The notes under the pieces are model-generated. The model saw only the letters and a list, made by a program, of their open reading frames with translations. It was not told the origin of the DNA and searched no databases. A DNA stretch of 64,000 bases, taken from IMG/VR virus record IMGVR_UViG_3300045988_182490; one strand, given 5' to 3'. The DNA comes from a virus. The translations under genes were made by a program, and so were the position numbers. Shown piece by piece: positions 7,541-61,597 of this stretch (within the stretch, counting starts at the first letter, position 1; every line of letters starts with the position of its first letter).

Positions 7541-7609
7541 GTCCATTAGCATAGCGGTTAATGCACTGGGCCTTGACCCGGGGACTGCGGTTCGAATCCG
7601 CAATGGGCC
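7541..7609 (+). tRNA. tRNA, possibly Gln (UUG); short
   Basis: TGCGGTTCGAATCCGCA T-arm, acceptor GTCCATT/AATGGGC, anticodon region CCTTGAC. Confidence 0.4.
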
Positions 7610-7621
7610 GTTTATATTTTT

Positions 7622-7713
7622 TGCCGTGGTGGCTCAAATGGTAAAGCAGCGGATTGCTAATCCGCCATCTCGGAGTAAAATCCGGTTTCAGGGTTCGAGT
7701 CCCTGTCACGGCG
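7622..7713 (+). tRNA. tRNA-Ser (GCU)
   Basis: stem GCGGA/TCCGC, loop TTGCTAA, long variable arm, CAGGGTTCGAGTCCCTG. Confidence 0.7.
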
Positions 7714-7718
7714 TTTAT

Positions 7719-15407: not shown

Positions 15408-15599
15408 AAGTGCATATGATTATTGTAACCAAAGCTACTATTGAAACATATATAAGGAATCAGGGCTAAGCCCTGCACCTTACATCCACACACCATAATG
15501 GAGTGTGGTTTTACGGCGAAGATTATAAAAACCTTCCGGAATTTTCCGGAAGGCTTTTCTTTCATATTAACTATATCAAGGAAAACAGGAGGAAAATAA

Positions 15600-36347: not shown

Positions 36348-36995
36348 ATGATGTATACCGCACTTAAAGGTACATGTTTCCTTTTATGTAACCTTTTAAC
36401 TACATCTGCCGTTAACTCTACTTTATTATGTTCGGCAGATCATTCTGAACAAAAAACAGTAAAATGTATTGAATATCATAATTCCATGCAGGAAGATATT
36501 ATAATCAACGTATTGGAAAATACACAGGAAAAAGAACTGCGGAGATTTCAAAAAGCATTAGATCAACTTCCAAAAGAAGCCAGAAGTTTATTTGCGGATG
36601 AAGATTTTCAGTTAAACTTTCTGCAGATATGTCAGGATTATGAGCTTGATCCTTATCTGATGCTATGTCTTATTAAAAAGGAATCTGCTTTTCTTCCTGA
36701 TGTATCAAACGGACATTGTTTAGGGTTATGTCAGATCAATGAATATTCACATAAATCAAGAATGGAAAGACTTGAATGTGATGATTTATATGATCCTTAT
36801 CAAAATATAATAGTTGCTGCTGATTATCTTGCTGAGCTTATATCCACAAAAAGAGATATGACCGAAGTGCTTATGTATTACAATATGCCTTCAGAGACGG
36901 CCCGGAAACGATATGAAGCCGGAAACTATAGCAACTATGCAATAAATATACAAAAAGAAGCCATACAACTAAGAGAAATAGCTGAAGCAGAATAG
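36348..36995 (+). CDS. lytic transglycosylase (SLT domain)
   Basis: 215 aa; CLIKKESAF...GLCQIN...DPYQNIIVAADYLAELI...YYNM SLT motifs. Confidence 0.75.
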   Translation: MMYTALKGTCFLLCNLLTTSAVNSTLLCSADHSEQKTVKCIEYHNSMQEDIIINVLENTQEKELRRFQKALDQLPKEARSLFADEDFQLNFLQICQDYELDPYLMLCLIKKESAFLPDVSNGHCLGLCQINEYSHKSRMERLECDDLYDPYQNIIVAADYLAELISTKRDMTEVLMYYNMPSETARKRYEAGNYSNYAINIQKEAIQLREIAEAE

Positions 36996-37004
36996 GAGCG
37001 TTTC

Positions 37005-37568
37005 ATGAATAATTTACCTAGTAGACCTGGAGAAGTGTTTTATATTATTAGAAGGACGCCATACAGCGAATCAATACTAAGTACTAAGGCTGTTATTTGT
37101 GAACAGTCATACATGCGCTGGGGGCGTCGAAAATCCCAGTATCGATTAGTTGATATTGATAACGGTGAGATTTTGGATTTTAAGGCTCAAACATTTTCTG
37201 AAATGTTGGATTTTGTGGAAGACGTTATTTCTGTTCCAGTTTCCTTTGAACGAAGATACACTGATTATAATTATGTCATTAATTTGCAAAAAGGATTAAA
37301 AGAAATTGCACAGGATTCCAATTTTGCTAACGATTTTCCTCAACGTTTTGTTGTTGGCGTATACTCAATTGGAAAATTTAAAGCTGAAATTAACGTGAGT
37401 CGAATCGGAATTACTTTGGAGTTTATTCATGATAAACCGATGCCAAATGGAATTCCGCCGGTTGGACTTCAGTATCTGAAAAACTTCCCTAAAACAGAAA
37501 AAGAAATGATTGAAGCGGTGGAAAAAGAGTTAAGACAGTTTATTAAAAAATATGATACGCTGTTGTAA
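37005..37568 (+). CDS. hypothetical protein
   Basis: 187 aa. Confidence 0.5.
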   Translation: MNNLPSRPGEVFYIIRRTPYSESILSTKAVICEQSYMRWGRRKSQYRLVDIDNGEILDFKAQTFSEMLDFVEDVISVPVSFERRYTDYNYVINLQKGLKEIAQDSNFANDFPQRFVVGVYSIGKFKAEINVSRIGITLEFIHDKPMPNGIPPVGLQYLKNFPKTEKEMIEAVEKELRQFIKKYDTLL

Positions 37569-37586
37569 GAATTTCTATGCAGAAAT

Positions 37587-37614
37587 TTGCATCTATAGAA
37601 CCATTTGTTATAAT
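37587..37614 (+). promoter_or_regulatory. sigma70 promoter (TTGCAT-16-TATAAT) driving sRNA copy A
   Basis: consensus -35/-10 with TG-extended -10 (TGTTATAAT). Confidence 0.6.
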
Positions 37615-37620
37615 AAGAAT

Positions 37621-37703
37621 ATCAAATGAGTTAATCATTTGTTTCTTCCATCTTTTATCTTTGATACAATCTCCGGATATTTTTATCCGGAGAATTTTTT
37701 TTT
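37621..37703 (+). ncRNA. small RNA, family copy A (5' hairpin, conserved core CTTTTATCTTTGAT, intrinsic terminator)
   Basis: promoter-to-terminator unit about 83 nt; terminator CTCCGGATATTTTTATCCGGAG + T9. Confidence 0.55.
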
Positions 37704-37769
37704 GCTATTTTCTGTCATATTATAAATAACATAAGAAAATAGGAGAATTTATTTTGGAGGATAAATAAT

Positions 37770-37970
37770 ATGAATTGGAATAATGCTTTTGCTATGAAGA
37801 AAAACATAAACGGTAAGATCGTTACTGTAGGACAGCAGGACTTTGATAATATGACTATTATGATTAAAGAGGAAAATGGAAATGTTATTAGCTGTCCTAT
37901 GGATTTTGATAATGACGGTGACTGTTACTTCATTTATGATTCTACTCAAGTGTACATAAGAGAAGTATGA
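37770..37970 (+). CDS. hypothetical small protein
   Basis: 66 aa; GGAGG RBS. Confidence 0.45.
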   Translation: MNWNNAFAMKKNINGKIVTVGQQDFDNMTIMIKEENGNVISCPMDFDNDGDCYFIYDSTQVYIREV

Positions 37971-37999
37971 TTAATTGCTGAATGGAGGAAAATAAAAGT

Positions 38000-38152
38000 A
38001 TGATTATAGAAGCTAAATTTACAGTAGCTGGTATGACGAGAGGCAAGAGATACGATGTCATTGACCTCATCAATGATAGATATTACAAAATTGTACTCGA
38101 CGGAGGCATTATAGGAATTCGGCATAGATGTAACTTCAATATTATTAAATAA
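38000..38152 (+). CDS. hypothetical small protein
   Basis: 50 aa; GGAGG RBS. Confidence 0.4.
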   Translation: MIIEAKFTVAGMTRGKRYDVIDLINDRYYKIVLDGGIIGIRHRCNFNIIK

Positions 38153-38173
38153 ATATAAGAAAGGAAAATAAAA

Positions 38174-38332
38174 ATGAGAACAAATAATGGTTGCATATGG
38201 GCATATAATACCGAAGTTGAGTGTAAACATAAAGAATGTACAGATTGCCCTTATTACAGGGCTGGGTACCAGAATAATAGATACGGATCTTTTAGTAACC
38301 CCTATGACGATAGTGGATGGGACGGAGAGTAA
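38174..38332 (+). CDS. hypothetical small Cys-rich protein
   Basis: 52 aa; AAGGAAA RBS. Confidence 0.4.
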   Translation: MRTNNGCIWAYNTEVECKHKECTDCPYYRAGYQNNRYGSFSNPYDDSGWDGE

Positions 38333-38411
38333 TCACTATCCACAATAAAAGGTGTGGTTTTACATCAAAAATTATAAATCAAAAAGAAAAGAGGAAATTA
38401 AAGTGAATAAT

Positions 38412-38573
38412 ATGTTTGAAGAAATGGGTAAAGCAAATATCAGAGCATTTTGTGATAAGCTGGAAGACAAGGTGTTAAATCATACACCTGATGTAATTGC
38501 CGAGTGTCCATTATTGGAAACAACAACCGTAATTAATATTATCAGAGAGTTGCGGAAAGAAATGGCTGAATAA
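38412..38573 (+). CDS. hypothetical small protein
   Basis: 53 aa. Confidence 0.4.
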   Translation: MFEEMGKANIRAFCDKLEDKVLNHTPDVIAECPLLETTTVINIIRELRKEMAE

Positions 38574-38653
38574 GAGGTAACGTAATAATCTATGAGATGA
38601 AGATATAGAGGCAGACAAAATTCGCATTTCTTTAGAAGATTGGAGGTAATATT

Positions 38654-38806
38654 ATGTCAAAAAGAGAACGAAGAGAATTTACAAAAGAACTAATTGAAAA
38701 ATGTATTGCTGCTATCAATGAACTGCCTAATTGTCCAAATGGACATTCAGATGTGTATGATAAGGCAACAATTGAAAGAGTTTTGAAAAATGTAATTGAT
38801 AATTAA
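38654..38806 (+). CDS. hypothetical small protein
   Basis: 50 aa; GGAGG RBS. Confidence 0.4.
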   Translation: MSKRERREFTKELIEKCIAAINELPNCPNGHSDVYDKATIERVLKNVIDN

Positions 38807-38884
38807 GAGGATTTTGAAAATTGGATTTACGAAATAAAAAATAGCCATTGAAACTAAGATTTCTTAGGAAAGTAGTGAAGAGAA

Positions 38885-39106
38885 ATGAGTAAAAACAATT
38901 ATGAAAAATATGCTGAAGCAAAACAGCAGGAATTATTGCATACAGAAAGGAGTCTACTACAGGCAATCAGTTGTCTAAGGTGTAGACAGAAGTTTACATC
39001 CTTGCAATGTATGGATAGTGCAATAGATTTTGTTGCAGACTTATATGATTTATCCATTGATGAAGTGAAGCGAGCAATGGATGGAGAAGAATACTGGTGT
39101 ATATAA
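38885..39106 (+). CDS. hypothetical small protein
   Basis: 73 aa. Confidence 0.4.
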   Translation: MSKNNYEKYAEAKQQELLHTERSLLQAISCLRCRQKFTSLQCMDSAIDFVADLYDLSIDEVKRAMDGEEYWCI

Positions 39107-39141
39107 AAATTGCATTTCTTTTAGATTAGAGGTAAGAGGAA

Positions 39142-39363
39142 ATGATTGTAAATGCTTATTTGAATGTAACGCAAGAGCAATGGGAGGGAATCAAAGAGAA
39201 GTACGTAGAACAGAATATGTATCATATTGTGAGCAATTCAAAGCGAAAGTGTAAACGCTGTGATGATTGCAAAATGTATAATCCTTGTTCTACTTATGAA
39301 GGATTTTGTTTAGAGACAAATGAATTGGTTGACGGAAATTTCACCTGCGAAAGTTGGTATTAA
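39142..39363 (+). CDS. hypothetical small Cys-rich protein
   Basis: 73 aa; CKRCDDC...C...C. Confidence 0.4.
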   Translation: MIVNAYLNVTQEQWEGIKEKYVEQNMYHIVSNSKRKCKRCDDCKMYNPCSTYEGFCLETNELVDGNFTCESWY

Positions 39364-39393
39364 AAATGGAGAAACCATAAGAGGGAAATAATA

Positions 39394-39543
39394 ATGTGGA
39401 CACCATGTGACGAACCTATTGAAGAGTATAATGAAGAAACCGGTAAAATGGAAACACGATACCATTGTCCTTATACAGATACTTACACTGGATACGAAGA
39501 TGAAATGTGTAGAAACTGCTGTGGGCTTGGTGTAGATGAATGA
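39394..39543 (+). CDS. hypothetical small Cys-rich protein
   Basis: 49 aa; GAGGG RBS. Confidence 0.35.
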   Translation: MWTPCDEPIEEYNEETGKMETRYHCPYTDTYTGYEDEMCRNCCGLGVDE

Positions 39544-39556
39544 GAGGAATAATATA

Positions 39557-40345
39557 ATGAATACAAGCAAAACAAGAAATTTATACTATGTAATGGATGA
39601 AAAAGAAGAAATGTTTGTAAAAGGAAACCTAAATAATCATGAAAACTCCTATACTGGAGAAATTGATCGAGCTTTTCGAACATATAGTAAAGAAGAAGCA
39701 ATTCATATATCCAATGAGTGTAATGACATTGGTATGAATACAAAGGTGGTTATGTTTACATGGAGATGCACTCTGGTAGCCAGAAATGTTAAAGGTATTG
39801 AAAATAATTCTGGTATCAAAGGTGATAGAAAACTTTCTGAGCTAAATGCAGGGGAAACATTCAAAGATGGAAATGGAATTGAATACATTGTATGCCAACA
39901 GTTTGAGAATGGGACTGCAGCAGTTGTAAGAAAGGGTCTTTTTGATCACAGACTATATTTTGGAGATACAAATGATTGGCGTGATAGTAATATTCGAGAA
40001 TATTTAAACAAAGAATATTTTAAGGAGCTTGCAGCACAATTCGGAGAAGATAATATCGTTGAATTCACTAGAGACCTGATATCTCTTGATGGATACGATG
40101 ATTATGGTAAATGTAGAGACAAGGTAAGTATTATGAGTCTTTTAGACTACATGAAGTACCATAAGGACATTGGCGATTGTGAAAATATTTACTATTTATT
40201 GACTCCCGCAACGATTCTTTCTGGCTGCAGTTATAAAACTGTTCTGTATATTGATGACAATGATTTACCTAACTATACATTATGCAGTTCCATTATGGCT
40301 GTACGCCCGTTTTTCGTCCTTAAATCTGATATCTACGTTTTCTAA
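39557..40345 (+). CDS. hypothetical protein
   Basis: 262 aa. Confidence 0.55.
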   Translation: MNTSKTRNLYYVMDEKEEMFVKGNLNNHENSYTGEIDRAFRTYSKEEAIHISNECNDIGMNTKVVMFTWRCTLVARNVKGIENNSGIKGDRKLSELNAGETFKDGNGIEYIVCQQFENGTAAVVRKGLFDHRLYFGDTNDWRDSNIREYLNKEYFKELAAQFGEDNIVEFTRDLISLDGYDDYGKCRDKVSIMSLLDYMKYHKDIGDCENIYYLLTPATILSGCSYKTVLYIDDNDLPNYTLCSSIMAVRPFFVLKSDIYVF

Positions 40346-40346
40346 T

Positions 40347-40371
40347 AAAAAGAAGCCTTTTGGCTTCTTTT
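40347..40371 (+). terminator. intrinsic terminator
   Basis: AAAAGAAGCCTTTTGGCTTCTTTTT. Confidence 0.6.
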
Positions 40372-40432
40372 TATTTTGTCTTGTTTCATCTGTCATATTA
40401 ATTACATCAAAAAGATAAATGGAGGAAATAAT

Positions 40433-41431
40433 ATGAAAGAAACAACGAACATTTTGGAATTATTTGGAGGTGTAGGAGCTCCACGTAGAGCGTTGGAATT
40501 ATGTGGGCTGAACATCAAATCCATCGATTATGTTGAGATTCTTCCTTATGCCGTATTAGCTTATAACAATATTTTTGATATTAGCTATAAACCGCAGAAT
40601 ATCATAAACTGGAATATGGATGTTGATATTCTAATTCATGGATCTCCTTGCCAGGACTTTACAAAAGAAGGTAAAAATGACATTAATACCGGTCGCTCTA
40701 TCCTTTATAACCGGACACTTGAAATTATCGAAAAGGGATTACATAAGAGACCTCCGGTAGTCATCTGGGAAAATGTCCCGAATCTGGCTTCTCAGGGTAA
40801 AAAGGTATCTCATAAACACCATTTGGACCATTATATCGAAACAATGGAAGCTATGGGATATAAAAGCACATATGCTATTCTTGATGCAAGTAAATACGGG
40901 ATTCCACAGGCAAGAGAACGGTTATATGTCGTGAGCTTATTATCTGGAAATGAATTTGAATTTCCGGATGAAATACCCCTTAAATTTCATCTACGGGATT
41001 TCCTTGATAAAACAGTGAATCCAGCTGATTACCAGCTCTCTGATGCAGAAAAACAGCTTTTCTTTACGAATAATGGAAAACTATATGTAAAGGAAGCTAC
41101 AAAAATTGGATATAAGCTCGTGGAAGATGGAGATTGCATCAATGTAGCTTTTCCTAATTCCAAAACAAGACGCGGTAGAGTAGGAAAAGGTGTTGCCAAA
41201 ACACTTACTACAGCCCCTAGACAAGCTGTATATACAAATGGTGTCCTTCGGATGTTGACTGCAAAGGAATATTGGCGGCTTATGGGTTTTAAGGATCGTG
41301 ATTATGCAGCAATGAAAAAAGTTGGTTTGACTGATGCTCAGATCTGTCATCTGGCCGGTAATTCAATTTGTGTTCCGGTACTTCAACATATTTTTACAAA
41401 ACTTATTGCCATGGGTGAAATCGAAAGATAA
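40433..41431 (+). CDS. DNA (cytosine-5)-methyltransferase, orphan
   Basis: 332 aa; motif I LFGGVGA, motif IV PCQDFT, motif VI ENVPNL, motif [13 protein letters not shown]. Confidence 0.9.
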
Positions 41432-41445
41432 AAAGGAGAAAAATA

Positions 41446-41667
41446 ATGGAAAACAAAAACAATTGGATCCCTGTTAGTTCTGGACTTTATCCAGAAGAAA
41501 ACGAGGCCGTGCAAGTCACTTATCTTGGATATAATGATCATGTGCCATATTGTGACCAATTTGCATATAGGTGTTCAGGAGAATGGCATTGGGTATATGA
41601 TAATACCATTCCCAATATAGAAATTACTGCATGGAAAAGTAATTGTGAACCATATAGTAAAAATTAA
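41446..41667 (+). CDS. hypothetical small protein
   Basis: 73 aa; AAAGGAG RBS. Confidence 0.45.
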   Translation: MENKNNWIPVSSGLYPEENEAVQVTYLGYNDHVPYCDQFAYRCSGEWHWVYDNTIPNIEITAWKSNCEPYSKN

Positions 41668-41750
41668 AAGAAGTCTCTTGGCTTCTTTTTCTTTTATATT
41701 CCTTTATCTGTCATATTAACTATATCAAACAGATAATAGGAGGAAATTAT

Positions 41751-42074
41751 ATGGAATTTTCGGATTTTTATGACATAGCTGAATATGGAAATAAACACTG
41801 GAAGGGTGCATATTCTCAAAAAGAGGTTAAGCAGAACGCTTATGATTATTATACGGATTTTCTTGCCTGTATGGACGAAGGAGAATTAACACCAGTTATC
41901 AAAGAATTAGCCAGACTTCTTGCCGATGATGGCAGCGATGAAGCAAAATACTGGTTGTTTATGATCGCAAGTTCTCTGAATCTTATTAATATAACCTTTG
42001 CTGATTGCCTGAAGACTGATGAATGGTTAAAAAATTTTTTATTATGTAAGGAGAACGGTTATGAAAATTACTAA
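41751..42074 (+). CDS. hypothetical protein
   Basis: 107 aa; AGGAGG RBS. Confidence 0.5.
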   Translation: MEFSDFYDIAEYGNKHWKGAYSQKEVKQNAYDYYTDFLACMDEGELTPVIKELARLLADDGSDEAKYWLFMIASSLNLINITFADCLKTDEWLKNFLLCKENGYENY

Positions 42075-42270
42075 TATCAAATGGGATACTGATGGTGATG
42101 AAGAAGTTTTTGCAACTCTTCCTCAAGAAATCGATGTTCCGGAATATTTTCTAGAAAAGAAAAATTTCGAAGTTGACGGAGAATATAGTAGAGATGAAAT
42201 GTTAGATCAATTGTCTGATTGGCTTTCTGATGAATATGGATTCTGCCATGGCGGATTCGATGTCGAATAG
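42061..42270 (+). CDS. hypothetical acidic small protein
   Basis: 69 aa; overlaps upstream gene. Confidence 0.4.
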   Translation: MKITNIKWDTDGDEEVFATLPQEIDVPEYFLEKKNFEVDGEYSRDEMLDQLSDWLSDEYGFCHGGFDVE

Positions 42271-42279
42271 GAGGCAGAT

Positions 42280-42483
42280 ATGCAGTATCAATTATATGCT
42301 AGATATGGCAAAAAAGATAATGTATGGCATTCTCTCGGATTATTCCAGAAAAGAAAAGAAGCTGAAAAGAATCAGAAGAAGCACAATCCCGATTGGCTAT
42401 ATAGAGTAGCTCCTTATTATGGAAAAATAATTTACGCAGATTTGCCACCGGCATATGAATTGTGGCCGAGAATGTGTGGATAA
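42280..42483 (+). CDS. hypothetical small protein
   Basis: 67 aa. Confidence 0.4.
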   Translation: MQYQLYARYGKKDNVWHSLGLFQKRKEAEKNQKKHNPDWLYRVAPYYGKIIYADLPPAYELWPRMCG

Positions 42484-42577
42484 GAAAGAAGCCTTTTGGT
42501 TTCTTTTCTTTTATTTTATGCAGAAATTTGCAATAACACTACTTTTAATTTATAATTGGTCTATCAGGAGGAAAATA

Positions 42578-42832
42578 ATGGAAACCTTAAATATAGAAAT
42601 TGTCAAAACAGAAGAACCACAGGTATGCGTGCTCCCTAATATCGCTGCCATGAAAGTTAAAGATTTTCTGGACGAAAAGAAAATTGAATACAGATGTGTA
42701 GGACAGGAAAAATTTGTAGACGGTTGGCCTGGAGGATGCACCTTCAATGGTAAAGTGTATACCCGTTTCGTTCAGGCAATAATCACCTGTATTGACAGTG
42801 AATGCTTACATGATCTTGCTGCAATGTTATAA
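42578..42832 (+). CDS. hypothetical small protein
   Basis: 84 aa; AGGAGG RBS; TTGCAA-17-TATAAT promoter upstream. Confidence 0.45.
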   Translation: METLNIEIVKTEEPQVCVLPNIAAMKVKDFLDEKKIEYRCVGQEKFVDGWPGGCTFNGKVYTRFVQAIITCIDSECLHDLAAML

Positions 42833-42923
42833 GTTAGAAAAAGAAGTCAAAAGGCTTCTTTTTCTTTTATCCTCCTTTATCTGTCATATTAACTATATCA
42901 ACAGATAACAGGAGGAAAATAAT

Positions 42924-43523
42924 ATGGGATGGACAGGATATCAGCCAACTCACTTTAAAAAAGGTGGAATAGTAGACCGTAAAGCAGAATGTGATGCTTA
43001 TTTTATGGAAGGCCTCAATAGAGGTAACTTCCAGGTATTGAAATCTTCAATAAAAGGCAGCGTGTATTATGCAGCCGTAAAGGATATGGTACGATATGCA
43101 GGTGAAGATGAAAAAGAACACAGTATCTATGTCCCGATAGATGACGGAAAAGTACGGGGATATGTTTTTCTTACGTCCGTCAAAGATGGAATGTTTTATT
43201 ACAAGGACATTTCTGAAGACATGGGCCCAGGCTACTATGATTGTCCGGAGTCTATTTTAAAGCTTCTTAGCGAGACGCATTCCGAGTATGCTCTGAATTG
43301 GAGAAAACATTGCTGGGAAGAAAATGAGAAAAAGAAAACACATAATCTTTCCAAGTTACCAATTGGAACAAAAATCATTTGGACGAGAAAAGATGGAGTT
43401 GAGGTAGAGTTATTGAAACATGCTCCAGCATATCAGTTCAAAAGACCATTTTGGTTCAATGCAGCGGATCGGACTTATATGTCTGCAAAATGGATCGTTG
43501 ACTGGGAAGTGAAGGAGGACTAA
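42924..43523 (+). CDS. hypothetical protein
   Basis: 199 aa; AGGAGG RBS. Confidence 0.55.
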   Translation: MGWTGYQPTHFKKGGIVDRKAECDAYFMEGLNRGNFQVLKSSIKGSVYYAAVKDMVRYAGEDEKEHSIYVPIDDGKVRGYVFLTSVKDGMFYYKDISEDMGPGYYDCPESILKLLSETHSEYALNWRKHCWEENEKKKTHNLSKLPIGTKIIWTRKDGVEVELLKHAPAYQFKRPFWFNAADRTYMSAKWIVDWEVKED

Positions 43524-43660
43524 CGATGAGTAAGGTAGAGCTGAATATCTGGCAGATTACGAAGGATATTCATTAACTGAAGGCTGCAAAATTGCAGAAA
43601 AAGAGTGGAATGAGATGTATAAGTAAATGGACATTCTAACGTGAAGTGAGGAGAAATGAT

Positions 43661-43894
43661 ATGGATAGACGAAATATTGCAATAACAAATAAAATGACAG
43701 AAATATTGAATAATGTAAAAGGGTTCGAAGCTGCAATGTCAAATCCAAAACAAGGGAAAATGCTGGTGCGTCATAATGGTGTTACTTTTTATGTTACAGT
43801 TGAACCAGTATTTAATGACAATGCCGAAGGAAATAGAGCTGAAAGTAAATCATTTGAAGATATCGTAGATTCACATAGTTGGATTTGGAACTAA
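43661..43894 (+). CDS. hypothetical small protein
   Basis: 77 aa. Confidence 0.4.
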   Translation: MDRRNIAITNKMTEILNNVKGFEAAMSNPKQGKMLVRHNGVTFYVTVEPVFNDNAEGNRAESKSFEDIVDSHSWIWN

Positions 43895-43959
43895 GTTATA
43901 TTAATACATTGGGCGGCAGATAACTGCCGTCCTTCAGTATATTACGAAAGGAGTAATAC

Positions 43960-44319
43960 ATGATACATCTCGAAAACGGGCATATTTATGAACTCACGAG
44001 TGATTTCGATATTTATTCATGTGATGACGGAAAGATAACAGTAAAAGCCGGTGCCGTTTTTGTAGCTGAGCGTGGAAATAATAGAATAATAAATGGCAGA
44101 GAATTGCCTTTTTACAATATATATATTTTACGGTCAAAAAGTTATCTTCCTTATTCATCCGCCTGTATATTTCAATCAATCAGTGGTATAACAATTAAAG
44201 AAATCACGATGGATATGTTGGATAAAGAAGCATTTGCAGGGTATCTACCATGGAATATCCGATTCGGAACAAATAGCAGTATCAGAGCAATGCAAAAAAT
44301 GATGGAGGAACGAAAATGA
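43960..44319 (+). CDS. hypothetical protein
   Basis: 119 aa. Confidence 0.45.
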   Translation: MIHLENGHIYELTSDFDIYSCDDGKITVKAGAVFVAERGNNRIINGRELPFYNIYILRSKSYLPYSSACIFQSISGITIKEITMDMLDKEAFAGYLPWNIRFGTNSSIRAMQKMMEERK

Positions 44320-45101
44320 TCTATATTACAGGAGATATTCATGGAGATCCCACAAGATTTTCCAAAGAAGCGTTTCCAGAACAATCAAAAATGACAAAAG
44401 AGGATTACGTTATTGTCTGTGGAGATTTTGGACTCGTATGGGATCAAATGGAATCAAGAACAGAAGAATATTGGCTTAACTGGCTTCAGAATAAGCCGTT
44501 CACTACATTATTCGTGGATGGTAATCATGAAAATCATGATAGATTGGATGCTATGCCAGTATCTGAATGGAATGGAGGAAATGTTCACTTTGTAAGACCT
44601 AATGTTATTCATTTAATGCGAGGCCAGGTATTTACTCTTTGTGAAAAAACATTCTTTACGTTTGGAGGAGCATCTTCCCATGATATCCAGGATGGTATTT
44701 TGGATCCTGATAATTATCAGTACGGAATTAAAGATCCTCTATTCAAAGAAGATAAAAAGAAGTTAGATGATAGAAGAGCCATGTACCGTATCAAGAGAGT
44801 ATCCTGGTGGGAACGTGAGCTTCCTAGCGAACAGGAGATGTCTGAAGGAATCGAAAATCTTAAGAAATACGGAAATAAAGTGGACTATATTATTTCCCAT
44901 AGTCCGTGCACCAGTGATATGTTCCTAATGGGCGGTAAAGGCATTTACCAGCCGGATATTATTTCGAACTATCTGGAAGAAGTAAGAGCCACAACGGAGT
45001 ATAAGAAATGGTATTTTGGACATATGCATATCAATAAGCAGGTGTCTATGCAGGATATTTGCTTGTATGAGCAAATTTTATTTGTCCCTACTTGTCAATA
45101 A
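44316..45101 (+). CDS. calcineurin-like metallophosphoesterase
   Basis: 261 aa; GDIHGD, GDFGLVWD, GNHENHD motifs; stop codon lies within first bases of IscB element copy 1. Confidence 0.8.
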   Translation: MIYITGDIHGDPTRFSKEAFPEQSKMTKEDYVIVCGDFGLVWDQMESRTEEYWLNWLQNKPFTTLFVDGNHENHDRLDAMPVSEWNGGNVHFVRPNVIHLMRGQVFTLCEKTFFTFGGASSHDIQDGILDPDNYQYGIKDPLFKEDKKKLDDRRAMYRIKRVSWWERELPSEQEMSEGIENLKKYGNKVDYIISHSPCTSDMFLMGGKGIYQPDIISNYLEEVRATTEYKKWYFGHMHINKQVSMQDICLYEQILFVPTCQ

Positions 45102-45361
45102 CCCATCACTAAAGTGACGGGCTTGTAAAAGCCCGATATTGACTAGCCTAAGTGTTTCGAACACTACGTTACGAGAGAATATATAGTCACCTGCGGATGT
45201 AATACCTAGTCTGCAGCTCTGAGGTCCGTGATTAAACAGTCCTGTTGGATAGGGACAGTGTTGCGGATATCCAAAACCTCTCATTAACATTGGCGAAGGT
45301 ATCATTACAGAGGAATGACCTCTGATTTATGTGATTTGGTTCACAGAAAGGAGTGCCTGTT
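45100..45361 (+). ncRNA. putative omega RNA (IscB guide scaffold), copy 1
   Basis: about 260-nt non-coding, GC-enriched, hairpin-rich region between IS left end and iscB start, canonical omega-RNA position. Confidence 0.6.
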
Positions 45362-46633
45362 ATGGTATATGTTCTTAACATTGACGGACAGCCGCTTATG
45401 CCCACTGACAGGCATGGAAAGGTCCGGCATCTTTTGAAAGACGGCCGGGCGGAAGTAGTAAAGCGCTGTCCGTTTACCATACGACTGTTGTATGACAGCA
45501 CGCACTATACACAGGATATCGTATTAGGTGTGGATGCCGGCAGCAAACATATCGGTTTGTCGGCCACCACAGAAACAAAAGAACTCTATGCTTCCGATGT
45601 GGAGCTAAGAAATGACATTGTGGATCTGATTTCCACACGCAGACAGAACCGCCGGTCACGGCGTAATCGTAAGATTCGTTATCGGAAGGCTCGTTTTCAG
45701 AACAGGGTATCCGGAAAGAAAAACTGGTTGGCTCCCAGTATCCGGCAGAAAGTCGATACACATATGACCGTGGTATCCAGAGTATGCATGATACTTCCGG
45801 TTACAAAGATCATCGTGGAGACAGCTTCTTTTGATATCCAGAAGATCAAGGATCCGGATATCAGTGGTACTGGTTATCAGCAGGGAGAGCAGCTCGATTT
45901 CTGGAACGTCCGGGAGTATGTATTATCCCGGGATGGTCATACCTGCCAGTGCTGCAAAGGCAAATCCAAGGATCCGGTGCTCAATGTACATCATATCGAG
46001 AGCCGAAAGACTGGTGGCGATGCTCCCAATAACCTGATCACCTTATGTGAGACATGCCATAAGAGTTATCACTCAGGTGCGGTGCAGCTGCCGAAAGCCA
46101 TCCATCGTGGCATGAGATTCAAGGATGCTGCATTCATGGGAGTCATGCGATGGAATTTCTATAACAAACTGAAGGAAATCTATGAGCTACAGGGCATTGA
46201 GATACGTATGACATTTGGGTATCTCACAAAGAATACCCGTATCCGTCATCATCTGCCAAAGGAGCATTACATAGATGCCAGGTGCATCAGCGGTCATCCG
46301 GAAGCAATACCCAGCAACGAAGTTTTCTATCAGAAGAAGGTTCGCTGCCATAACCGCCAGATACATAAGAACACTATCCTTAAAGGTGGTATCCGAAAAC
46401 GAAATCAGGCCGGCTATCTGGTAAAAGGCTTCCGGCTGTTCGATAAAGTAGCTTACAAAGGCAGAGAGTACTTCATTTTTGGACGCAGGCAAAGTGGATT
46501 CTTCGATTTGCGGAATCTGTCCGGATGCAAAGTAAACAAAGGCAGTCTCAGTTACCGGAAGATCGGATTTCTGGAACCGAGACAATACTATTTATGTGAA
46601 AGGAGAGTAATGGACACCCAGGGCTGTGCTTAA
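45362..46633 (+). CDS. iscB: IscB RNA-guided nuclease (PLMP-RuvC-BH-HNH-RuvC)
   Basis: 423 aa; PLMP (GQPLMP), RuvC-I GVDAGSKHIGLS, Arg-rich bridge helix, RuvC-II IIVETASFD, HNH CQCCKG...HHI...NLITLCETCH, RuvC-III EHYIDARC. Confidence 0.9.
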   Translation: MVYVLNIDGQPLMPTDRHGKVRHLLKDGRAEVVKRCPFTIRLLYDSTHYTQDIVLGVDAGSKHIGLSATTETKELYASDVELRNDIVDLISTRRQNRRSRRNRKIRYRKARFQNRVSGKKNWLAPSIRQKVDTHMTVVSRVCMILPVTKIIVETASFDIQKIKDPDISGTGYQQGEQLDFWNVREYVLSRDGHTCQCCKGKSKDPVLNVHHIESRKTGGDAPNNLITLCETCHKSYHSGAVQLPKAIHRGMRFKDAAFMGVMRWNFYNKLKEIYELQGIEIRMTFGYLTKNTRIRHHLPKEHYIDARCISGHPEAIPSNEVFYQKKVRCHNRQIHKNTILKGGIRKRNQAGYLVKGFRLFDKVAYKGREYFIFGRRQSGFFDLRNLSGCKVNKGSLSYRKIGFLEPRQYYLCERRVMDTQGCA

Positions 46634-46981
46634 CAGCACTCCTCCCACGACTAAAGTCACGGGTGCCCGTGCTAAGCGAATTTATGAAATATTACCTATA
46701 ATAACGAAGAGGGACAGATAGCTGTTCCTCTTTGTTATTATCTAAAAGGGATAGTATATTGGTACTTTCGATGTAAACGGGACAATAATCTGTGCCGGTT
46801 GCATAAAGGGATAATATACTATTCCTTTAAATTTATTAATTAAAGGAACATAATTCTATCACTTTCAATCATATAAGGGATATAATATTATCCTTTTAAC
46901 ATATAGCTTATAATTTTTAGAAATGATCTTTTTGTCTCTTTATCTGTCATATTAATGGTAGAAAAACAAACGGAGGTGCTT

Positions 46982-47770
46982 ATGTTAAAAGAATTACGCA
47001 GCAGATCCTTTACAAATGGAAAGGTATATGCATTAGAAACAGAGGATGGATATCCATTGGAAGTCACCGATACTTTTTTACCAAATTATACAAAGGACGC
47101 AATCAATAACAATGAAAACACACTGAAGACATATGAAGTTGGAGACCGGACCAATCGCTGGATGATTGGTGTTAGTTGTATGAGCGGCTGTCCTGTGCAT
47201 TGTAAGTTCTGCGCAACCGGAAAACTTAAAAGATGGCGTTGCTTAACAGCCGAAGAGATTGTAGCTCAGGTGGAATTTATTATCAAACAGAATCCGGAAT
47301 ATCGATTTGAAGATGCTTGGGAACATAAAATCAATTACACCAGAATGGGAGAGCCGTTCCTAAATATAGAAGAAGTAAAAAAAGCTATTCAGATGATTGA
47401 CGAAAAGTATCCAGGAACGCATCATTATATCTCTACAGTTGGATTACAGGGAAGCGATTTTAGCTGGATTAAAGACAATATTACGTTACAAGTTAGCTTA
47501 CATAGTCTTGATGAGGAAAGACGACACAATTTAATTCCTATCAGTAATCTGATGTCTATCGAAGAACTGGGCCAGATTCGGACAAATAGTAATTTAAAAA
47601 CAACTGTCAATATGACATTAGTTGACTATGAAGATTTTGACATCAATATCTTGACCAAATATTTTGATCCTAGATATTTTTTTATAAAATTAAGTCCTAT
47701 TAACGAGAACGAGATTTCTGAGAAAAATCATATGGGATCTGGTATTATCGAGAAAAGAAATTTGATGTAA
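46982..47770 (+). CDS. RlmN/Cfr-like radical SAM methyltransferase, N-terminal and core part (split gene)
   Basis: 263 aa; SCMSGCPVHCKFCATG (CxxxCxxC in RlmN-specific context), MGEPFLN, ISTVGL, VSLHSLDEERRHNLIPI align with RlmN residues about 60-320. Confidence 0.65.
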   Translation: MLKELRSRSFTNGKVYALETEDGYPLEVTDTFLPNYTKDAINNNENTLKTYEVGDRTNRWMIGVSCMSGCPVHCKFCATGKLKRWRCLTAEEIVAQVEFIIKQNPEYRFEDAWEHKINYTRMGEPFLNIEEVKKAIQMIDEKYPGTHHYISTVGLQGSDFSWIKDNITLQVSLHSLDEERRHNLIPISNLMSIEELGQIRTNSNLKTTVNMTLVDYEDFDINILTKYFDPRYFFIKLSPINENEISEKNHMGSGIIEKRNLM

Positions 47771-47791
47771 TACGCAAAGGAGGAAAAACTC

Positions 47792-47917
47792 ATGGAGAAA
47801 ATCGCAAATCAGTTAAGGGCAGCAGGTTATGATTACGCAGTTGCCATTGCGACTGAAGCAGAAATTACTGCAAAAGCTGCATGCGGCCAGTTAGCCATTA
47901 TTACTGAGGATAAGTAA
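47792..47917 (+). CDS. RlmN-like C-terminal fragment carrying conserved ACGQL cysteine motif (separate micro-ORF)
   Basis: 41 aa with own AAAGGAGG RBS; LRAAGYDYAVAIATEAEITAKAACGQLAI parallels RlmN ...[27 protein letters not shown]. Confidence 0.55.
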   Translation: MEKIANQLRAAGYDYAVAIATEAEITAKAACGQLAIITEDK

Positions 47918-47968
47918 TCGTTAACAGGAAATGCCCCACTCAGGGGCATTTTCTATGGAGGAAAAAAT

Positions 47969-48769
47969 ATGTTACATAATCATAGAGTGTTCCGGTATCG
48001 AATTATCACGAATTTTCATTGTAATCAGAACTGTTATTTTTGCTTTCAGCCGGAAAAGCGAGAAAAGATATTAGATATTGAAAAAATGGAAGATACTATG
48101 AAAAAGGTAGGTATGTTGGAAAGAGCTACCATTATGGGCGGAGAGAGTTTACTTTTACCGAATATCGTAGATTATTTCAAAGTAGTGCATAAATATGTAA
48201 ATACAATTTGCCTGGTAACAAACGGTACGAAGTTAACTGAAGATTTGACAAAAGCTTTAGTAGAAAATGGACTGGAAGAAATGGCAATCTCTATATCTTC
48301 TAAAGAACAATATAAGGCCAGAAGAGAACAGATACTGATTGCAAAAAAGTACGTGCCTAATTTACGCATCAATCTTCCAAAATCTTGGGAGTCTACTGGG
48401 GAAAAGTTATATGAACTTGTTGATATGATTTTAGCAGATGATATCGGCGTGGTTGTATGTGAAGATCTTATGGGCAGATACAATTTAAACTATAAAAACA
48501 GCTATGAAGATCTGCTTTATGGTATGGGCGCTAAATTATTACGCAGTGATGGACATAATTTCTTCACGTTTGAGTGGAAGGGAAAAGAATTTGGGTTGTT
48601 TGGGTATCACGGAGATAAAAACGCATCCGCAGATACGGAAGAAGCCGGATACGAAAAGACAGATATTATCATTGCACCGAATTGTCATTCTGATGAACGG
48701 TATTCCCATAAAGTCTATTCTGTGTGGGAAGATTACTGCCATGATATAGGAAACCACGACTTGGCATAG
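47969..48769 (+). CDS. radical SAM domain protein (MoaA/PqqE-like core, no SPASM extension)
   Basis: 266 aa; ITNFHCNQNCYFCF (CxxxCxxC), MGGESLLL, LVTNGTKL. Confidence 0.65.
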   Translation: MLHNHRVFRYRIITNFHCNQNCYFCFQPEKREKILDIEKMEDTMKKVGMLERATIMGGESLLLPNIVDYFKVVHKYVNTICLVTNGTKLTEDLTKALVENGLEEMAISISSKEQYKARREQILIAKKYVPNLRINLPKSWESTGEKLYELVDMILADDIGVVVCEDLMGRYNLNYKNSYEDLLYGMGAKLLRSDGHNFFTFEWKGKEFGLFGYHGDKNASADTEEAGYEKTDIIIAPNCHSDERYSHKVYSVWEDYCHDIGNHDLA

Positions 48770-48778
48770 GAGTGCAGT

Positions 48779-49213
48779 ATGCTTAAAATTGATTTTGGCA
48801 GCGGATATAATCCATATCCTGGATATAAAACATGTGATATTACTCAAGGTCCCTATTTAGATTATGTATACAATACAGAGACAAACGAAATTATTGGATT
48901 GCAAGAAGGATCCGTTGATGAATTTCGCCTTAAAAACGTACTACATCATGCTGATATACCGAAGGTGATTCAGTGTCTCCACAGATATTTAAAATCAGGC
49001 GGAATTCTGCAAATTATTGAACCAAGGACGGAGTATTACGAACAAAACCGGTGTCTGGATCTGTTTTGGTATCGTTACATTTATCCGAGATATGAAATAG
49101 CAATTCCTCCCAAAAGGAGAGTTGACTACTTAAAAATATGCGAGGCATATTTTAAAATCTCATCACATCAAAATGCAGATGTTTATGACGTTTATTTTTT
49201 TGTTAACCGATAA
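48779..49213 (+). CDS. small class I SAM-dependent methyltransferase-fold protein
   Basis: 144 aa; motif I KIDFGSGYNP, motif III LKSGGILQI. Confidence 0.5.
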   Translation: MLKIDFGSGYNPYPGYKTCDITQGPYLDYVYNTETNEIIGLQEGSVDEFRLKNVLHHADIPKVIQCLHRYLKSGGILQIIEPRTEYYEQNRCLDLFWYRYIYPRYEIAIPPKRRVDYLKICEAYFKISSHQNADVYDVYFFVNR

Positions 49214-49248
49214 TAATTAGCAGAACCTTATATAAGGAGTAAATATAT

Positions 49249-49974
49249 ATGCTATCTTTTTTACAAAAATTAATTAATAGTAAAAATAATACAGTAATAT
49301 CTTCAAAACAAGATGCTGTCACTGCAAATAGTGACGACTTAATTCAGGAAAAGCCAATACCTAACTGCAAAAATGCTTTCCATATATTAATCATTACAGA
49401 TACGCATTGTCATATGAGAAAAGAACAAATAGAAGACTTTCTCTCTGACATCGAAGATAAAATTGATATTGTCTTTATATTAGGTGATATGAGCGAAAGA
49501 GATATGTTCGTTGCAAAAGAAATAGCTAAAAAATATAAAGCTCTCATCTATGGAATTCTTGGTAATCATGATTATGATGGACAATTAGAAGAAATGGATA
49601 TTCCAAATTTTGAAGGAAAGATGATAGAATTTAATGGAGTTACGTTTACAGGAATGCACGGAAGCTTTAAATATAAGAACTCTGACGCACCTATGTTAAC
49701 TAACGAAGAGAGTATAGAATTAGCAAAAATACTACCAACTTGTGATATTTTTCTTACTCACGATAAAGCTAGAACAAATAATGAAGAAAATTCGCATAGT
49801 GGATTAGAAGGCATAACTCAGTATATTTTAGATAAAAAACCAGAATATCATATTCATGGACATCTTCATGAAAATATGAACGAAAATATTGGCGGAATTA
49901 GTTCTTTGGGATTTTGTAGATATGCATATATCGAAGTATCTAAAAATGGATTAAAAATCAAAAAGATTTTTTAA
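49249..49974 (+). CDS. calcineurin-like metallophosphoesterase
   Basis: 241 aa; ILIITDTHCH, ILGDMSE, ILGNHDYD, GMHGS motifs. Confidence 0.75.
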   Translation: MLSFLQKLINSKNNTVISSKQDAVTANSDDLIQEKPIPNCKNAFHILIITDTHCHMRKEQIEDFLSDIEDKIDIVFILGDMSERDMFVAKEIAKKYKALIYGILGNHDYDGQLEEMDIPNFEGKMIEFNGVTFTGMHGSFKYKNSDAPMLTNEESIELAKILPTCDIFLTHDKARTNNEENSHSGLEGITQYILDKKPEYHIHGHLHENMNENIGGISSLGFCRYAYIEVSKNGLKIKKIF

Positions 49975-50087
49975 AGATAGTTCACTGAAATAAAGTACGA
50001 CAAAAAGCTCCTGTTACAAAGAGGTAAAATCAGATAAAGAACAATAAATCATTAAAAACATGGACGTAAAAATTTCTGTGCAGAAAT

Positions 50088-50115
50088 TTGCAATAATTTT
50101 CAAAGCTGTTATAAT
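50088..50115 (+). promoter_or_regulatory. sigma70 promoter (TTGCAA-16-TATAAT) driving sRNA copy B
   Basis: consensus -35/-10, TGTTATAAT extended -10. Confidence 0.6.
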
Positions 50116-50121
50116 AGCATT

Positions 50122-50203
50122 ATCAGATGAAGAACACATCTGATTTCCCCTTTTATCTTTGATGAAGATCCCCGGAACTTTCCCCTCCGGGGATCATTTT
50201 TTA
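50122..50203 (+). ncRNA. small RNA, family copy B
   Basis: 5' hairpin TCAGATG-AAGAACA-CATCTGA, core CCCTTTTATCTTTGATGAAGATC, terminator ATCCCCGGAACTTTCCCCTCCGGGGAT + T6. Confidence 0.55.
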
Positions 50204-50361
50204 TACATATATTTTCTTCCATATTATTTGTATAAACAAAGGAATTCAAAATAAAAACCAATATACTCAAAATCAAGATATTTTACGGTGAATTTTGTGC
50301 AGAAATTTACAGTGTTTTTAAATTTAATCTATCATATTAATATCAGAAAGGTGGTATAATT

Positions 50362-57326: not shown

Positions 57327-57639
57327 ATGCAATCTGCATCAGCTGAAGAAGCATCAAACAGAGAGCTAATAAGGTTTCTTTTTTTATGAGAAAAGTGGTT
57401 AATACAGATCAAGATATTGCATATTTTTTAAATTGATTTTCAAACAATTACTTTTACAAAAGTCTATTGTTTATGCTGTGTTGCAAGCATTTACATCCAC
57501 TTAACGGATGTATTTTAAACATCAATATTTTTATTCTTATTTTTAAGGAATATAAAATATGAAATATTATTTTTTCAAATAATTGTTTCCATAATTTCTT
57601 TCATATTAATTGTATCAAAAGAAAATTGGAGGAAACGAA

Positions 57640-58236: not shown

Positions 58237-58354
58237 TTTAGGCAGCTTTGGCTGCCTTTTTTATATAAAACCGTGAAAAAGCAGACTGTATAATTGGTAT
58301 AGGATTCCATAAAAATAATGTCATATTAATTATATATAATATAAGTCAATAACC

Positions 58355-58612
58355 CATCACTAAAGTGACGGGTTTGTAAAAGCCCGATATTGACTAGCCT
58401 AAGTGTTTCGAACACTACGTTACGAGAGAATATATAGTCACCTGCGGATGTAATACCTAGTCTGCAGCTCTGAGGTCCGTGATTAAACAGTCCTGTTGGA
58501 TAGGGACAGTGTTGCGGATATCCAAAACCTCTCATTAACATTGGCGAAGGTATCATTACAGAGGAATGACCTCTGATTTATGTGATTTGGTTCACAGAAA
58601 GGAGTGCCTGTT
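58355..58612 (+). ncRNA. putative omega RNA, copy 2
   Basis: same sequence as copy 1 scaffold. Confidence 0.6.
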
Positions 58613-61152: not shown

Positions 61153-61453
61153 TTATAATTCAGAAATAATCTTGCAAATCTTATCCTGTAATTCTCCAGC
61201 TTCCTTAGCATAAGCAATTCCGGAAAGAAATTCCTTATTCTGTGATGCCTCTTCAATTGTTTCCGGAGTTTTTCTCATGGAAGCTCTTGCAAGATTTGCA
61301 TATCCTTCTGTAGAAACTGCCCGGTACAGGTTAATCAGTTCTTTTAATTTCGGGTGGTTCTCATATTCCTCAAGAACCTTATTAAATTCTTCATTCTCCA
61401 TAAAAATCAGATCATCGTAATTTCTTTTCTTTCTGAATTCTTTGATTTCTGCC
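61153..61453 (-). CDS. hypothetical protein (minus strand)
   Basis: about 100 aa from internal Met with AAGAGG RBS. Confidence 0.4.
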
Positions 61454-61597
61454 ATTTTCTTTTTCCTCTTTATCTTTGCTGTATTCTGTTTTCTATAGAT
61501 AATATAACACGATTTGGAATGAACGGCAAATTTCTGCACAGAAATTTCAATTTATTTTTCAGTCATATTAACTATAACAATCGATAAAAGGAGAAAA

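Follow-up and report, generated by a model that had tools for sequence, protein, structure and literature searches.

Our analyses of a 64,000-nucleotide stretch of phage DNA (IMG/VR virus record IMGVR_UViG_3300045988_182490; "the window" hereafter means the whole of this stretch) have identified a family of two genes, unit 1 and unit 2, which very probably are real and functional genes for small RNAs (sRNAs). An earlier note, made from the sequence alone, had proposed both the existence of this family and a role for its members in pairing with a leader motif found upstream of many genes of the phage. The first proposal is borne out by the presence at both loci of a promoter, a hairpin and a terminator without any conserved open reading frame (ORF), by near-invariant orthologues in related phages, and by a third homologue with an identical core. 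The best-supported description of the units is that of trans-acting, imperfectly pairing, phage-encoded sRNAs of the type with a C/U-rich seed that is found in Firmicutes. To the second proposal, viz. that they act on the leaders of messenger RNAs (mRNAs) made from a class of phage promoters marked by a TCTGTCATATTA box, we would give somewhat less than an even chance. Sequence and comparison with relatives establish the anatomy of these genes, their structure, the selection on their core and a complementarity to box leaders that exceeds that of shuffled sequences.

The promoters of both units are as the earlier note had described them, each with a near-consensus -35 hexamer, a 16-base-pair (bp) spacer and an extended -10 element (TGTTATAAT). 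They are the strongest sigma-70-type promoters in the window, where the combination TTGCA-N14-TGTTATAAT occurs 2 times against an expectation of 0.09. An 18-bp palindrome (consensus AATTTCT(A/G)TGCAGAAATT) lies upstream of the -35 element of unit 1, and it is present at unit 2 and in a distant lineage (L080) as well. At 37587-37703 and 50088-50203, each promoter is followed by a unit of about 82 nucleotides (nt) that ends in a terminator, as had been claimed (coordinates are collected in Table 1). Both units start with ATCA(A/G)ATGA, the first A being the seventh base after the -10. The further statement that no ORF or ribosome-binding site is present holds for conserved ORFs, but a mechanical plus-strand ORF of 50 amino acids (aa) does exist at 37577-37729; it starts inside the promoter, upstream of the predicted RNA start, and has no counterpart at unit 2.

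The two predicted RNAs share one architecture, consisting of a 5' hairpin, an unpaired pyrimidine-rich stretch of 22-28 nt, and a terminator whose G+C-rich stem of 10 bp leads into a T run. The folds have energies of -22.3 kcal/mol for unit 1 (z -5.3 relative to shuffles) and -29.7 kcal/mol for unit 2 (z -5.2), with covariance-model scores of 99.8 and 93.3 bits, respectively. Their minimum free energy (MFE) and centroid structures are identical and contain the terminator only, with no alternative antiterminator pairing. All variants were used to build the covariance model, which detects only these two units in the window; a search of the window with filters off revealed no third copy or diverged paralogue. 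The shared core reported earlier lies within the unpaired region as the 14-mer CTTTTATCTTTGAT, whose only exact copies in the window are those at 37652-37665 and 50150-50163; the unpaired region of unit 2 also contains CCCC (50147-50150). Regarding the 5' hairpins, which had been described as differing in sequence while keeping their pairing, the pairing is indeed kept, but the hairpins are largely the same (CA(A/G)AUG/CAU(U/C)UG) and differ by one compensatory pair (A-U to G-C). A small extra hairpin in unit 2 (UUUAUC/GAUGAA) was rejected as a structure of the family, as it is kept neither in unit 1 nor in L080. Neither unit could be assigned to a family in Rfam at gathering or E-value thresholds. 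The lowest E-values in the two Rfam E-value scans were for RsaE/RoxS (RF01820), to which unit 1 scores 25.3 bits against a gathering threshold of 79, and FsrA (RF02273), to which unit 2 scores 23.1 bits against a threshold of 80. The units do show the general features of trans-acting sRNAs, viz. independent transcription from their own promoter to an intrinsic terminator without a conserved ORF, and a conserved structure with an accessible, sequence-conserved seed.

Comparison with relatives reveals where these genes tolerate change. In ten contigs of the same phage, unit 1 is unchanged save for the length of its T run. In the diverged lineages L011, L014 and L017, whose adjacent 187-aa gene has 86-89% nucleotide identity, the unpaired region of unit 1 is identical at 27/27 positions in 3/3 lineages, and differences are seen in the promoter spacer, in the loop of the terminator, in the T tail and at the hairpin base. 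The promoter hexamers of the relatives are invariant and the spacer is variable. The orthologue of unit 2 in L059 carries a U-A to U-G change in the hairpin that keeps the pairing, one extra U before the C run and a change in the loop, with the core untouched. A third type of unit is found in a distant lineage (viz. L080, L086, L087, L091 and L092) at a position syntenic with unit 2. In this lineage the SLT protein and the downstream 150-aa protein have 59% and 71% amino-acid identity, respectively, to their window counterparts. The third type shares the palindrome, the -35, the -10 and the AUCAGAUG hairpin with the window units and keeps UUCCCCUUUUAUCUUUGAUG exactly; its terminator differs in sequence with the pairing preserved and ends in a weaker T tail (UUUUGUU), and in L080 the region upstream of the palindrome is not alignable with the window. 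In a nine-variant alignment fitted to the model, 97.6% of cells are paired, versus at most 55% with slid partners, and compensatory change is seen at three pairs (one in the 5' hairpin and two in the terminator); such fitting favours structure somewhat, and an alignment made with MAFFT gave the same picture. Both the hairpin pairing and the unpaired core are conserved across the three types and all orthologues, and the alignments demonstrate purifying selection on the core. An invariant seed of about 20 nt amid proteins at 59-71% identity is what would be expected of a seed that fits many targets at once.

The distribution of the family among the relatives is uneven. At the place in L080 that is syntenic with unit 1 only a terminator was found, and a 29-bit match there represents that terminator. 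No homologue was detected in the 9-12 kilobases (kb) examined of the more distant box-promoter phages L084 and L085, and the human-faecal phage contig MT835757 has neither box promoters nor a homologue. The gut contig L049 (14075-14170) has completely different sequence upstream of unit 2 when compared with the window (50040-50078), the junction being located at the palindrome, and its two units are separated by 11.75 kb versus 12.5 kb in the window; the small-RNA cassette is retained across this mosaic boundary.

The gene cassettes of the window are arranged in the order terminator, TCTGTCATATTA box, short leader and GGAGG. The box occurs at 47 sites with at most 2 mismatches against 12.8 expected in the window, and if it serves as an extended -10 (TG-T-CATATT), transcription is predicted to begin at the A of an ATCAA, a sequence that matches the initial sequence of the two small RNAs. 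The order of sRNA terminator followed by box is seen at unit 1, at unit 2 and in L080. In L059 (1841-2160) an 87-aa AAA_33 gene is driven by the box promoter that follows unit 2; this gene is deleted from the window (50204-50300), which retains an orphan promoter and a short remnant. The leader motif described in the earlier note does exist: in six lineages AGATAA is present in 14/55 distinct box leaders versus 3/178 of the 16-nt stretches upstream of other Shine-Dalgarno sites, and ATCAA in 13/55 versus 12/178. The motif is class-specific, yet it marks a subclass comprising roughly a quarter of the box leaders. Typical box leaders are ATCAAAAAGATAAATGGAGGAAA (40406), ATCAAACAGATAATAGGAGG (41724) and ATCAACAGATAACAGGAGG (42897), and the reverse complement of the unpaired region reads ATCAAAGATAAAAGATGGAAGAAA in unit 1 and CATCAAAGATAAAAGGGGAAA in unit 2. 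Four leaders had been cited as examples, and those at 40406, 41722 and 42897 belong to one repeated 95-nt cassette and are not independent of one another; orthologues of this cassette occur in L080, and the copies are possible recombination modules. A 10-nt same-sense match to the small-RNA core (ATCTTTGATA, 3541-3550) is located immediately before the first transfer RNA (tRNA) gene of the window; it was rejected as a meaningful match, being within chance expectation for the composition.

The complementarity between the units and these leaders was evaluated by comparing the unpaired regions of units 1 and 2 with dinucleotide shuffles, the cofold calculations including each RNA's own structure. 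By duplexfold, the top-five mean for 21 promoter-proximal leaders, taken from the predicted +1, was -18.1 for unit 2 versus -13.0 for the shuffles (z -4.1, 0/300) and -17.0 versus -14.8 for unit 1 (z -1.6, p 0.05), whereas 62 other initiation regions of the window showed no enrichment (z +0.5 for unit 1 and -0.5 for unit 2). Full-length cofold of the top five among 19 promoter-proximal leaders gave z -2.7 (0/60) for unit 1 and z -1.7 (p 0.08) for unit 2. Out of sample, in 24 box leaders of L080, L084 and L085, the unit 2 type reached a mean z of -2.5, a top-five z of -2.6 and a median z of about -2.3. For 37 other initiation regions of the same loci, the mean and top-five z of unit 1 were about 0, and those of the unit 2 type were about 0 and -1.1 to -1.4, respectively, which is not significant. 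Hence, seed complementarity beyond chance is present for promoter-proximal box leaders only and is of moderate strength; the complementarity noted earlier does beat shuffles in these leaders, but the pairing itself is a prediction. The suggestion that a whole promoter class is modulated was overstated, as good matches are limited to about a quarter to a third of the box leaders (those of the ATCAA...AGATAA...GGAGG type), several of which are paralogous cassettes. The predicted duplexes span the first mRNA nucleotides through the GGAGG. The leader of the C5 DNA methyltransferase gene at 40406 is a top predicted target in the window (duplex -18.3 and -17.1 kcal/mol, cofold -18.8 and -16.0 kcal/mol, with units 1 and 2, respectively) and, by orthologue, in L080, and the leader of a 102/107-aa gene is near the top in both lineages (L080 box at 7699).

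We propose that each unit is an independent gene, with a sigma-70-type promoter and an intrinsic terminator, for a non-coding RNA whose 5' end is most likely shielded by the 5' hairpin, at or within 2 nt of the first transcribed base, and whose 3' end would be shielded by the terminator hairpin. The working part of this RNA would be its unpaired pyrimidine-rich region, in which the invariant core UUUUAUCUUUGAU is the complement of AUCAAAGAUAAAA, the predicted 5'-terminal sequence of a subclass of the phage's own TCTGTCATATTA-box mRNAs, and the C/U-rich stretch just 5' of the core (CCCC in unit 2, CUUCCAU in unit 1) is complementary to the GGAGG Shine-Dalgarno sequence of the same leaders. Pairing in trans from the first mRNA nucleotide through the ribosome-binding site would block translation initiation, and it may also alter 5'-end-dependent decay. 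If the action is stoichiometric, an expression threshold would result for the target genes, among them those of the C5 DNA methyltransferase operon. The strong promoters and the palindrome suggest that synthesis is abundant and regulated, probably early, with control possibly exerted via the palindrome at the -35. Production of the RNA, its pairing in vivo, a repressive effect and the timing are all inferred. The broadest form of the proposal, in which the units would be strongly expressed, class-wide anti-leader riboregulators that use one invariant seed to cover nucleotide +1 through the Shine-Dalgarno sequence of many box-promoter transcripts and so set their translation threshold, appears to us possible but doubtful.

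A number of points weigh against an action on the phage's own leaders. The window represents 64 kb of a larger genome, the start sites of the units are predicted from the -10 spacing alone, and the pairing hypothesis was framed on these same window leaders, three of the best of which are non-independent copies of the 95-nt cassette. The significance of the pairing is moderate and method-dependent (p about 0.01-0.08 by method and unit): unit 1 is weak by duplexfold and is not significant in the 24 out-of-sample box leaders, and unit 2 is weak in cofold once its own small internal hairpin counts. Leaving self-matches aside, perfect complementarity in the window extends over at most 11 nt. Because the core never changes while the leaders vary between lineages, there is no co-variation of sRNA and target. 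Moreover, any pyrimidine-rich RNA has some affinity for purine-rich leaders, and host targets may match better than the phage leaders do.

Several of these points are shared by the view that the units are genuine trans-acting sRNAs whose physiological targets lie elsewhere (viz. host mRNAs or phage mRNAs outside the window), the match to the leaders being a by-product of an anti-Shine-Dalgarno, U-rich seed. The gene anatomy and the conservation of the core would suit any sRNA that acts by base pairing, the sRNAs of Firmicutes normally use unpaired C/U-rich seeds to pair with ribosome-binding sites, and the leader statistics are only moderate, with complementarity in the window never exceeding 11 contiguous nt. 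However, it is specifically the promoter-proximal box leaders that show the enrichment, and other initiation regions with the same GGAGG lack it, which disfavours a pure anti-Shine-Dalgarno effect, and the invariant core fits the part of the leader outside the Shine-Dalgarno sequence (AUCAAAGAUAA), a class-specific motif; we regard this explanation as unlikely, though it deserves serious weight. It is improbable that the RNA instead binds a protein, as a decoy or sponge whose U-rich core is recognised by an RNA chaperone or by an RNA-binding protein of host or phage. The absolute invariance of an 18-20-nt stretch across lineages in which the candidate leaders vary would also fit recognition by a protein, and the RNA would be abundant because the promoters are very strong. 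On the other hand, no candidate protein partner was identified, the core lacks the internal repeat or structured motif typical of protein sponges, and its ordered complementarity to a class-specific leader motif would have to be a coincidence. A cis-acting leader or attenuator, in which the strong early promoter reads through an overridden terminator and the core is the site of an antitermination factor, would fit the box promoter and same-strand genes that follow within 8-15 nt downstream in all three types, and also the weaker T tail (UUUUGUU) of the L080 type. This reading is nevertheless quite improbable in view of the canonical, strong terminators of units 1 and 2, folds that offer no antiterminator pairing exclusive of the terminator (MFE and centroid coincide), and downstream genes that have their own promoter. 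The downstream gene also differs among unit 1, unit 2 and L059 and is deleted after unit 2 in the window with the unit kept, and Rfam yielded no match to a riboswitch, aptamer or leader family; a protein-dependent antiterminator of an unfamiliar type is still conceivable.

The opposite strand and the DNA itself provide two further alternatives. On the minus strand of both units ATCAAAGATAAAAG, which resembles a leader, is followed by a Shine-Dalgarno-like GGAAG or GGGG and, 5-7 nt on, by an ATG; ORFs of 31 aa and 41 aa begin there, the latter being among the listed ORFs, and in two contigs (L006 and L009) a gene caller placed a 57-aa minus-strand gene. The functional product could thus be a small minus-strand protein with the plus-strand RNA as its antisense regulator, in the manner of a type I toxin-antitoxin system, but this is very improbable and the coding reading was rejected. 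The ORFs are not conserved: the residues that they share (IIT, ANFC) are encoded by the reverse complement of the -10 and -35/palindrome elements, the differences among relatives lie in the promoter spacer and are non-synonymous (N-G-S to K-S-S, K-G-S or K-Q-F), and the C-termini are unrelated and of unequal length, that of L049 being changed completely by the upstream replacement. In addition, no promoter is placed for a minus-strand start at ATCAA, where a G+C-rich terminator stem lies, all neighbouring genes are on the plus strand, and no conserved small toxin ORF antisense to the RNA was found. It is barely credible that the units function as DNA, either as a binding site for a DNA-binding regulator, shared by the core and the box-promoter leaders, or as a promoter-terminator insulator or recombination module. 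The occurrence of the same 11-14-bp sequence, inverted, just downstream of box-promoter start sites, the boundary of the L049 mosaic exactly at the palindrome and the repetition of terminator-box-leader cassettes are consistent with such an element. However, both hairpins retain their RNA pairing through compensatory changes, the 5' inverted repeat has a different spacing and loop in each unit, which fits an RNA hairpin better than an operator, and a perfect promoter and terminator around a DNA site would have no obvious purpose.

The palindrome upstream of the units belongs to a wider set of elements in the window, where TGCAGAAATTT occurs at 16 sites with at most 1 mismatch against 3.9 expected. 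Its right half (TGCAGAAAWWT) also precedes two promoters that serve protein genes and are of the units' own type, at 42519 (+) and 61528 (-), as well as several box promoters, including that of the tRNA array. The AATTTCTNTGCAGAAATT palindrome or its right half is located about 26-31 nt upstream of the -10 in a subset of promoters of both types. The palindrome is likely either bound by a dimeric regulator or an upstream promoter element peculiar to the phage, and no candidate was found for a protein that binds it. A 100-aa gene on the minus strand (61153-61455) has a promoter of the same type as the small RNAs (TGCAGAAATTTGCC / TGTTATATT). This gene, whose promoter is the one at 61528, has a sub-threshold Pfam match to the antirestriction protein ArdA (E 0.01, 16.9 bits versus a cutoff of 27), a weak hint that this type of promoter marks an early, anti-defence class.

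The window, which has GGAGG ribosome-binding sites and PHROG matches, belongs to a large phage of a Firmicute, and the likely host is a Clostridium-like Firmicute; one of the phage proteins is identical to a protein deposited for Clostridium sp. AF34-10BH. An identical sequence of one neighbouring protein was found in 1506 blocks of an assembly collection (human gut assemblies), and human gut metagenomes very often contain the phage. Among the phages of the INPHARED collection, the most remote that are still recognisable as its kin are SPbeta-like; blastn searches of INPHARED and PLSDB gave no match. Scans of IMG/VR with three DNA patterns and two protein seeds returned chance matches only and did not find the phage lineage, and a scan of GTDB representative genomes with a core-plus-terminator pattern likewise gave chance matches only. 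In a scan of JGI metagenomes, 14/16 loci were the same phage species with identical units and 2/16 were chance matches, so no diversity was added.

Other features of the window include 33 tRNA genes arrayed on the plus strand (3552-7714), with a TGCAGAAATTT element and a TCTGTCATAATA box ahead of them at 3482-3519. The anticodon loop of the tRNA at 7539-7611 is irregular and was left unassigned by ARAGORN. Two copies of the HEARO (IscB omega) RNA are present at 45094-46633 and 58345-59884 (142 and 140 bits), and after each comes an IscB-type gene of 423 aa with RRXRR and HNH domains; because the copies have 100% identity over their first 300 nt, the IscB element appears to be recently duplicated or mobile in the phage genome. 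A link between the units and these elements was considered and rejected, as the distances are unequal (7.5 and 8.2 kb) and the initiation region of IscB shows no complementarity. Just upstream of unit 2, two adjacent genes of about 265 aa (46982-47770 and 47969-48769), whose counterparts in the orthologous locus L058 are radical S-adenosylmethionine (SAM) proteins, are followed by a SAM-methyltransferase-like gene (48779-49213) and a metallophosphoesterase gene (49249-49974), and these genes may form a nucleic-acid modification module. In the relatives, an AcrIC5-like anti-CRISPR (clustered regularly interspaced short palindromic repeats) gene of 63-67 aa is located between the SLT gene and the 187/196-aa gene; the window lacks it at that position, the SLT gene (36348-36995) being directly followed by 37005-37568. 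Its presence in the relatives suggests an anti-defence neighbourhood around unit 1. Lying beside the 187-aa gene, just upstream of the position of unit 1, it is the sole lead toward an RNA anti-CRISPR (solitary repeat mimic).

Table 1. Coordinates of the sRNA units and of associated features (window positions unless a related locus is named).
Feature	Position	Strand	Remarks
Unit 1 promoter	37587..37614	+	TTGCAT 37587-37592, 16-bp spacer, TGTTATAAT 37606-37614
Unit 1 RNA (predicted)	37621..37703	+	5' hairpin 37623-37641; unpaired 37642-37669; terminator stem-loop 37670-37693; T run to 37703
Unit 2 promoter	50088..50115	+	TTGCAA 50088-50093, 16-bp spacer, TGTTATAAT 50107-50115
Unit 2 RNA (predicted)	50122..50202	+	5' hairpin 50122-50144; unpaired 50145-50166; terminator 50167-50195; T run to 50202
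18-bp palindrome AATTTCTATGCAGAAATT	37570..37587	+	abuts and overlaps unit 1 -35; read from sequence
18-bp palindrome AATTTCTGTGCAGAAATT	50071..50088	+	abuts unit 2 -35
Palindrome sites	37570-37587; 50071-50088; 61520-61545 (minus strand)		
Palindrome half-sites	1106; 3482; 42519; 50298		
TGCAGAAAAA variants			about 27 nt upstream of boxes at 21907, 27591 and 32917
Box promoter TCTGTCATATTA	37711..37722	+	directly after unit 1 terminator; drives 66-aa gene 37770-37970
Box promoter TCTTCCATATTA	50215..50226	+	after unit 2 terminator; orphan in window
95-nt cassette (terminator hairpin, T run, TCTGTCATATTA box, ATCAA...AGATAA leader, GGAGG)	40344-40438; 41662-41756; 42835-42929		72-83% identity
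Predicted target leader ATCAAAAAGATAAATGGAGG...	40406..40432	+	C5 DNA methyltransferase gene (40433-41431)
Predicted target leader ATCAAACAGATAATAGGAGG	41724..41750	+	107-aa gene
Predicted target leader ATCAACAGATAACAGGAGG	42897..42923	+	199-aa gene
Predicted target leader ATCAAGGAAAACAGGAGG	15575..15599	+	233-aa gene
Predicted target leader ATCAAAAGAAAATTGGAGG	57614..57639	+	Bro-N gene
Minus-strand ORF opposite unit 1		-	31 aa
Minus-strand ORF opposite unit 2	50014-50139	-	41 aa
AcrIC5-like gene	L011 5597-5800; L014 1139-1342; L017 2301-2504; L080 2653-2844		

To our knowledge, almost nothing is known about RNA-based regulation in the phages of gut Firmicutes, and most of the phage sRNAs described to date come from prophages of Proteobacteria. 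If the proposed mechanism is true, the units provide an example of a phage that gates the translation of a group of its own transcripts with one sRNA seed, and the box promoter together with its leader would constitute a ready-made, orthogonal pair for the control of expression. The family is compact and testable, with a seed of 13-20 nt, a set of candidate targets and three natural variants that can be used for comparative target prediction. Even without an anti-leader role, it is a new and conserved non-coding RNA of a phage, with no entry in Rfam.

Of the known systems, RoxS/RsaE and FsrA resemble the units in their size of about 80-110 nt, in having their own promoter, hairpins and an intrinsic terminator, and in unpaired C/U-rich stretches that pair with ribosome-binding sites of the GGAGG type. 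In addition, RoxS pairs with one mRNA at its very 5' end, and its pairing affects the 5'-end-dependent decay of one target. However, the units have no sequence homology to these sRNAs and score far below the family thresholds, they are encoded by a phage and have a single seed rather than several C-rich regions, and what this seed matches is the leader consensus of the phage itself, not metabolic mRNAs of the host. Phage RNAs of about 70-80 nt that pair with phage ribosome-binding regions include sar of P22, OOP and aQ of lambda, and c4 of P1/P7, which are likewise short, phage-encoded and control phage gene expression. These RNAs are encoded opposite to or within the operon that they control and show perfect complementarity to one target, whereas the units described here have no gene on the opposite strand, show imperfect complementarity (at most 11 contiguous nt) and have many dispersed candidate leaders; no perfect extended complementarity to an opposite-strand or same-operon gene, as in cis-encoded phage antisense RNAs, was found. 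In T4, the translational repressor RegA and the endoribonuclease RegB act on the initiation regions or the GGAG of a set of phage mRNAs. The resemblance to RegA/RegB is functional only, as the agents there are proteins and here an RNA seed would be the specificity determinant. The c4 and aQ RNAs are summarised in PMC12197685, as are the prophage-encoded sRNAs DicF, IpeX, AsxR/AgvB and VpdS, which act in trans by imperfect pairing; the described prophage sRNAs are mostly Proteobacterial and mostly target host mRNAs or host sRNAs (PMC12197685). None of DicF, IpeX, AsxR/AgvB and VpdS is reported to be the complement of its phage's own leader consensus, and none has sequence similarity to the units. 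The units thus belong to none of the RoxS/RsaE, sar/c4 and RegA/RegB systems, as they fail the Rfam thresholds and are not cis-antisense; they represent a new phage sRNA family with no Rfam counterpart, in which a class-wide anti-leader logic would be the novel element if it is confirmed.

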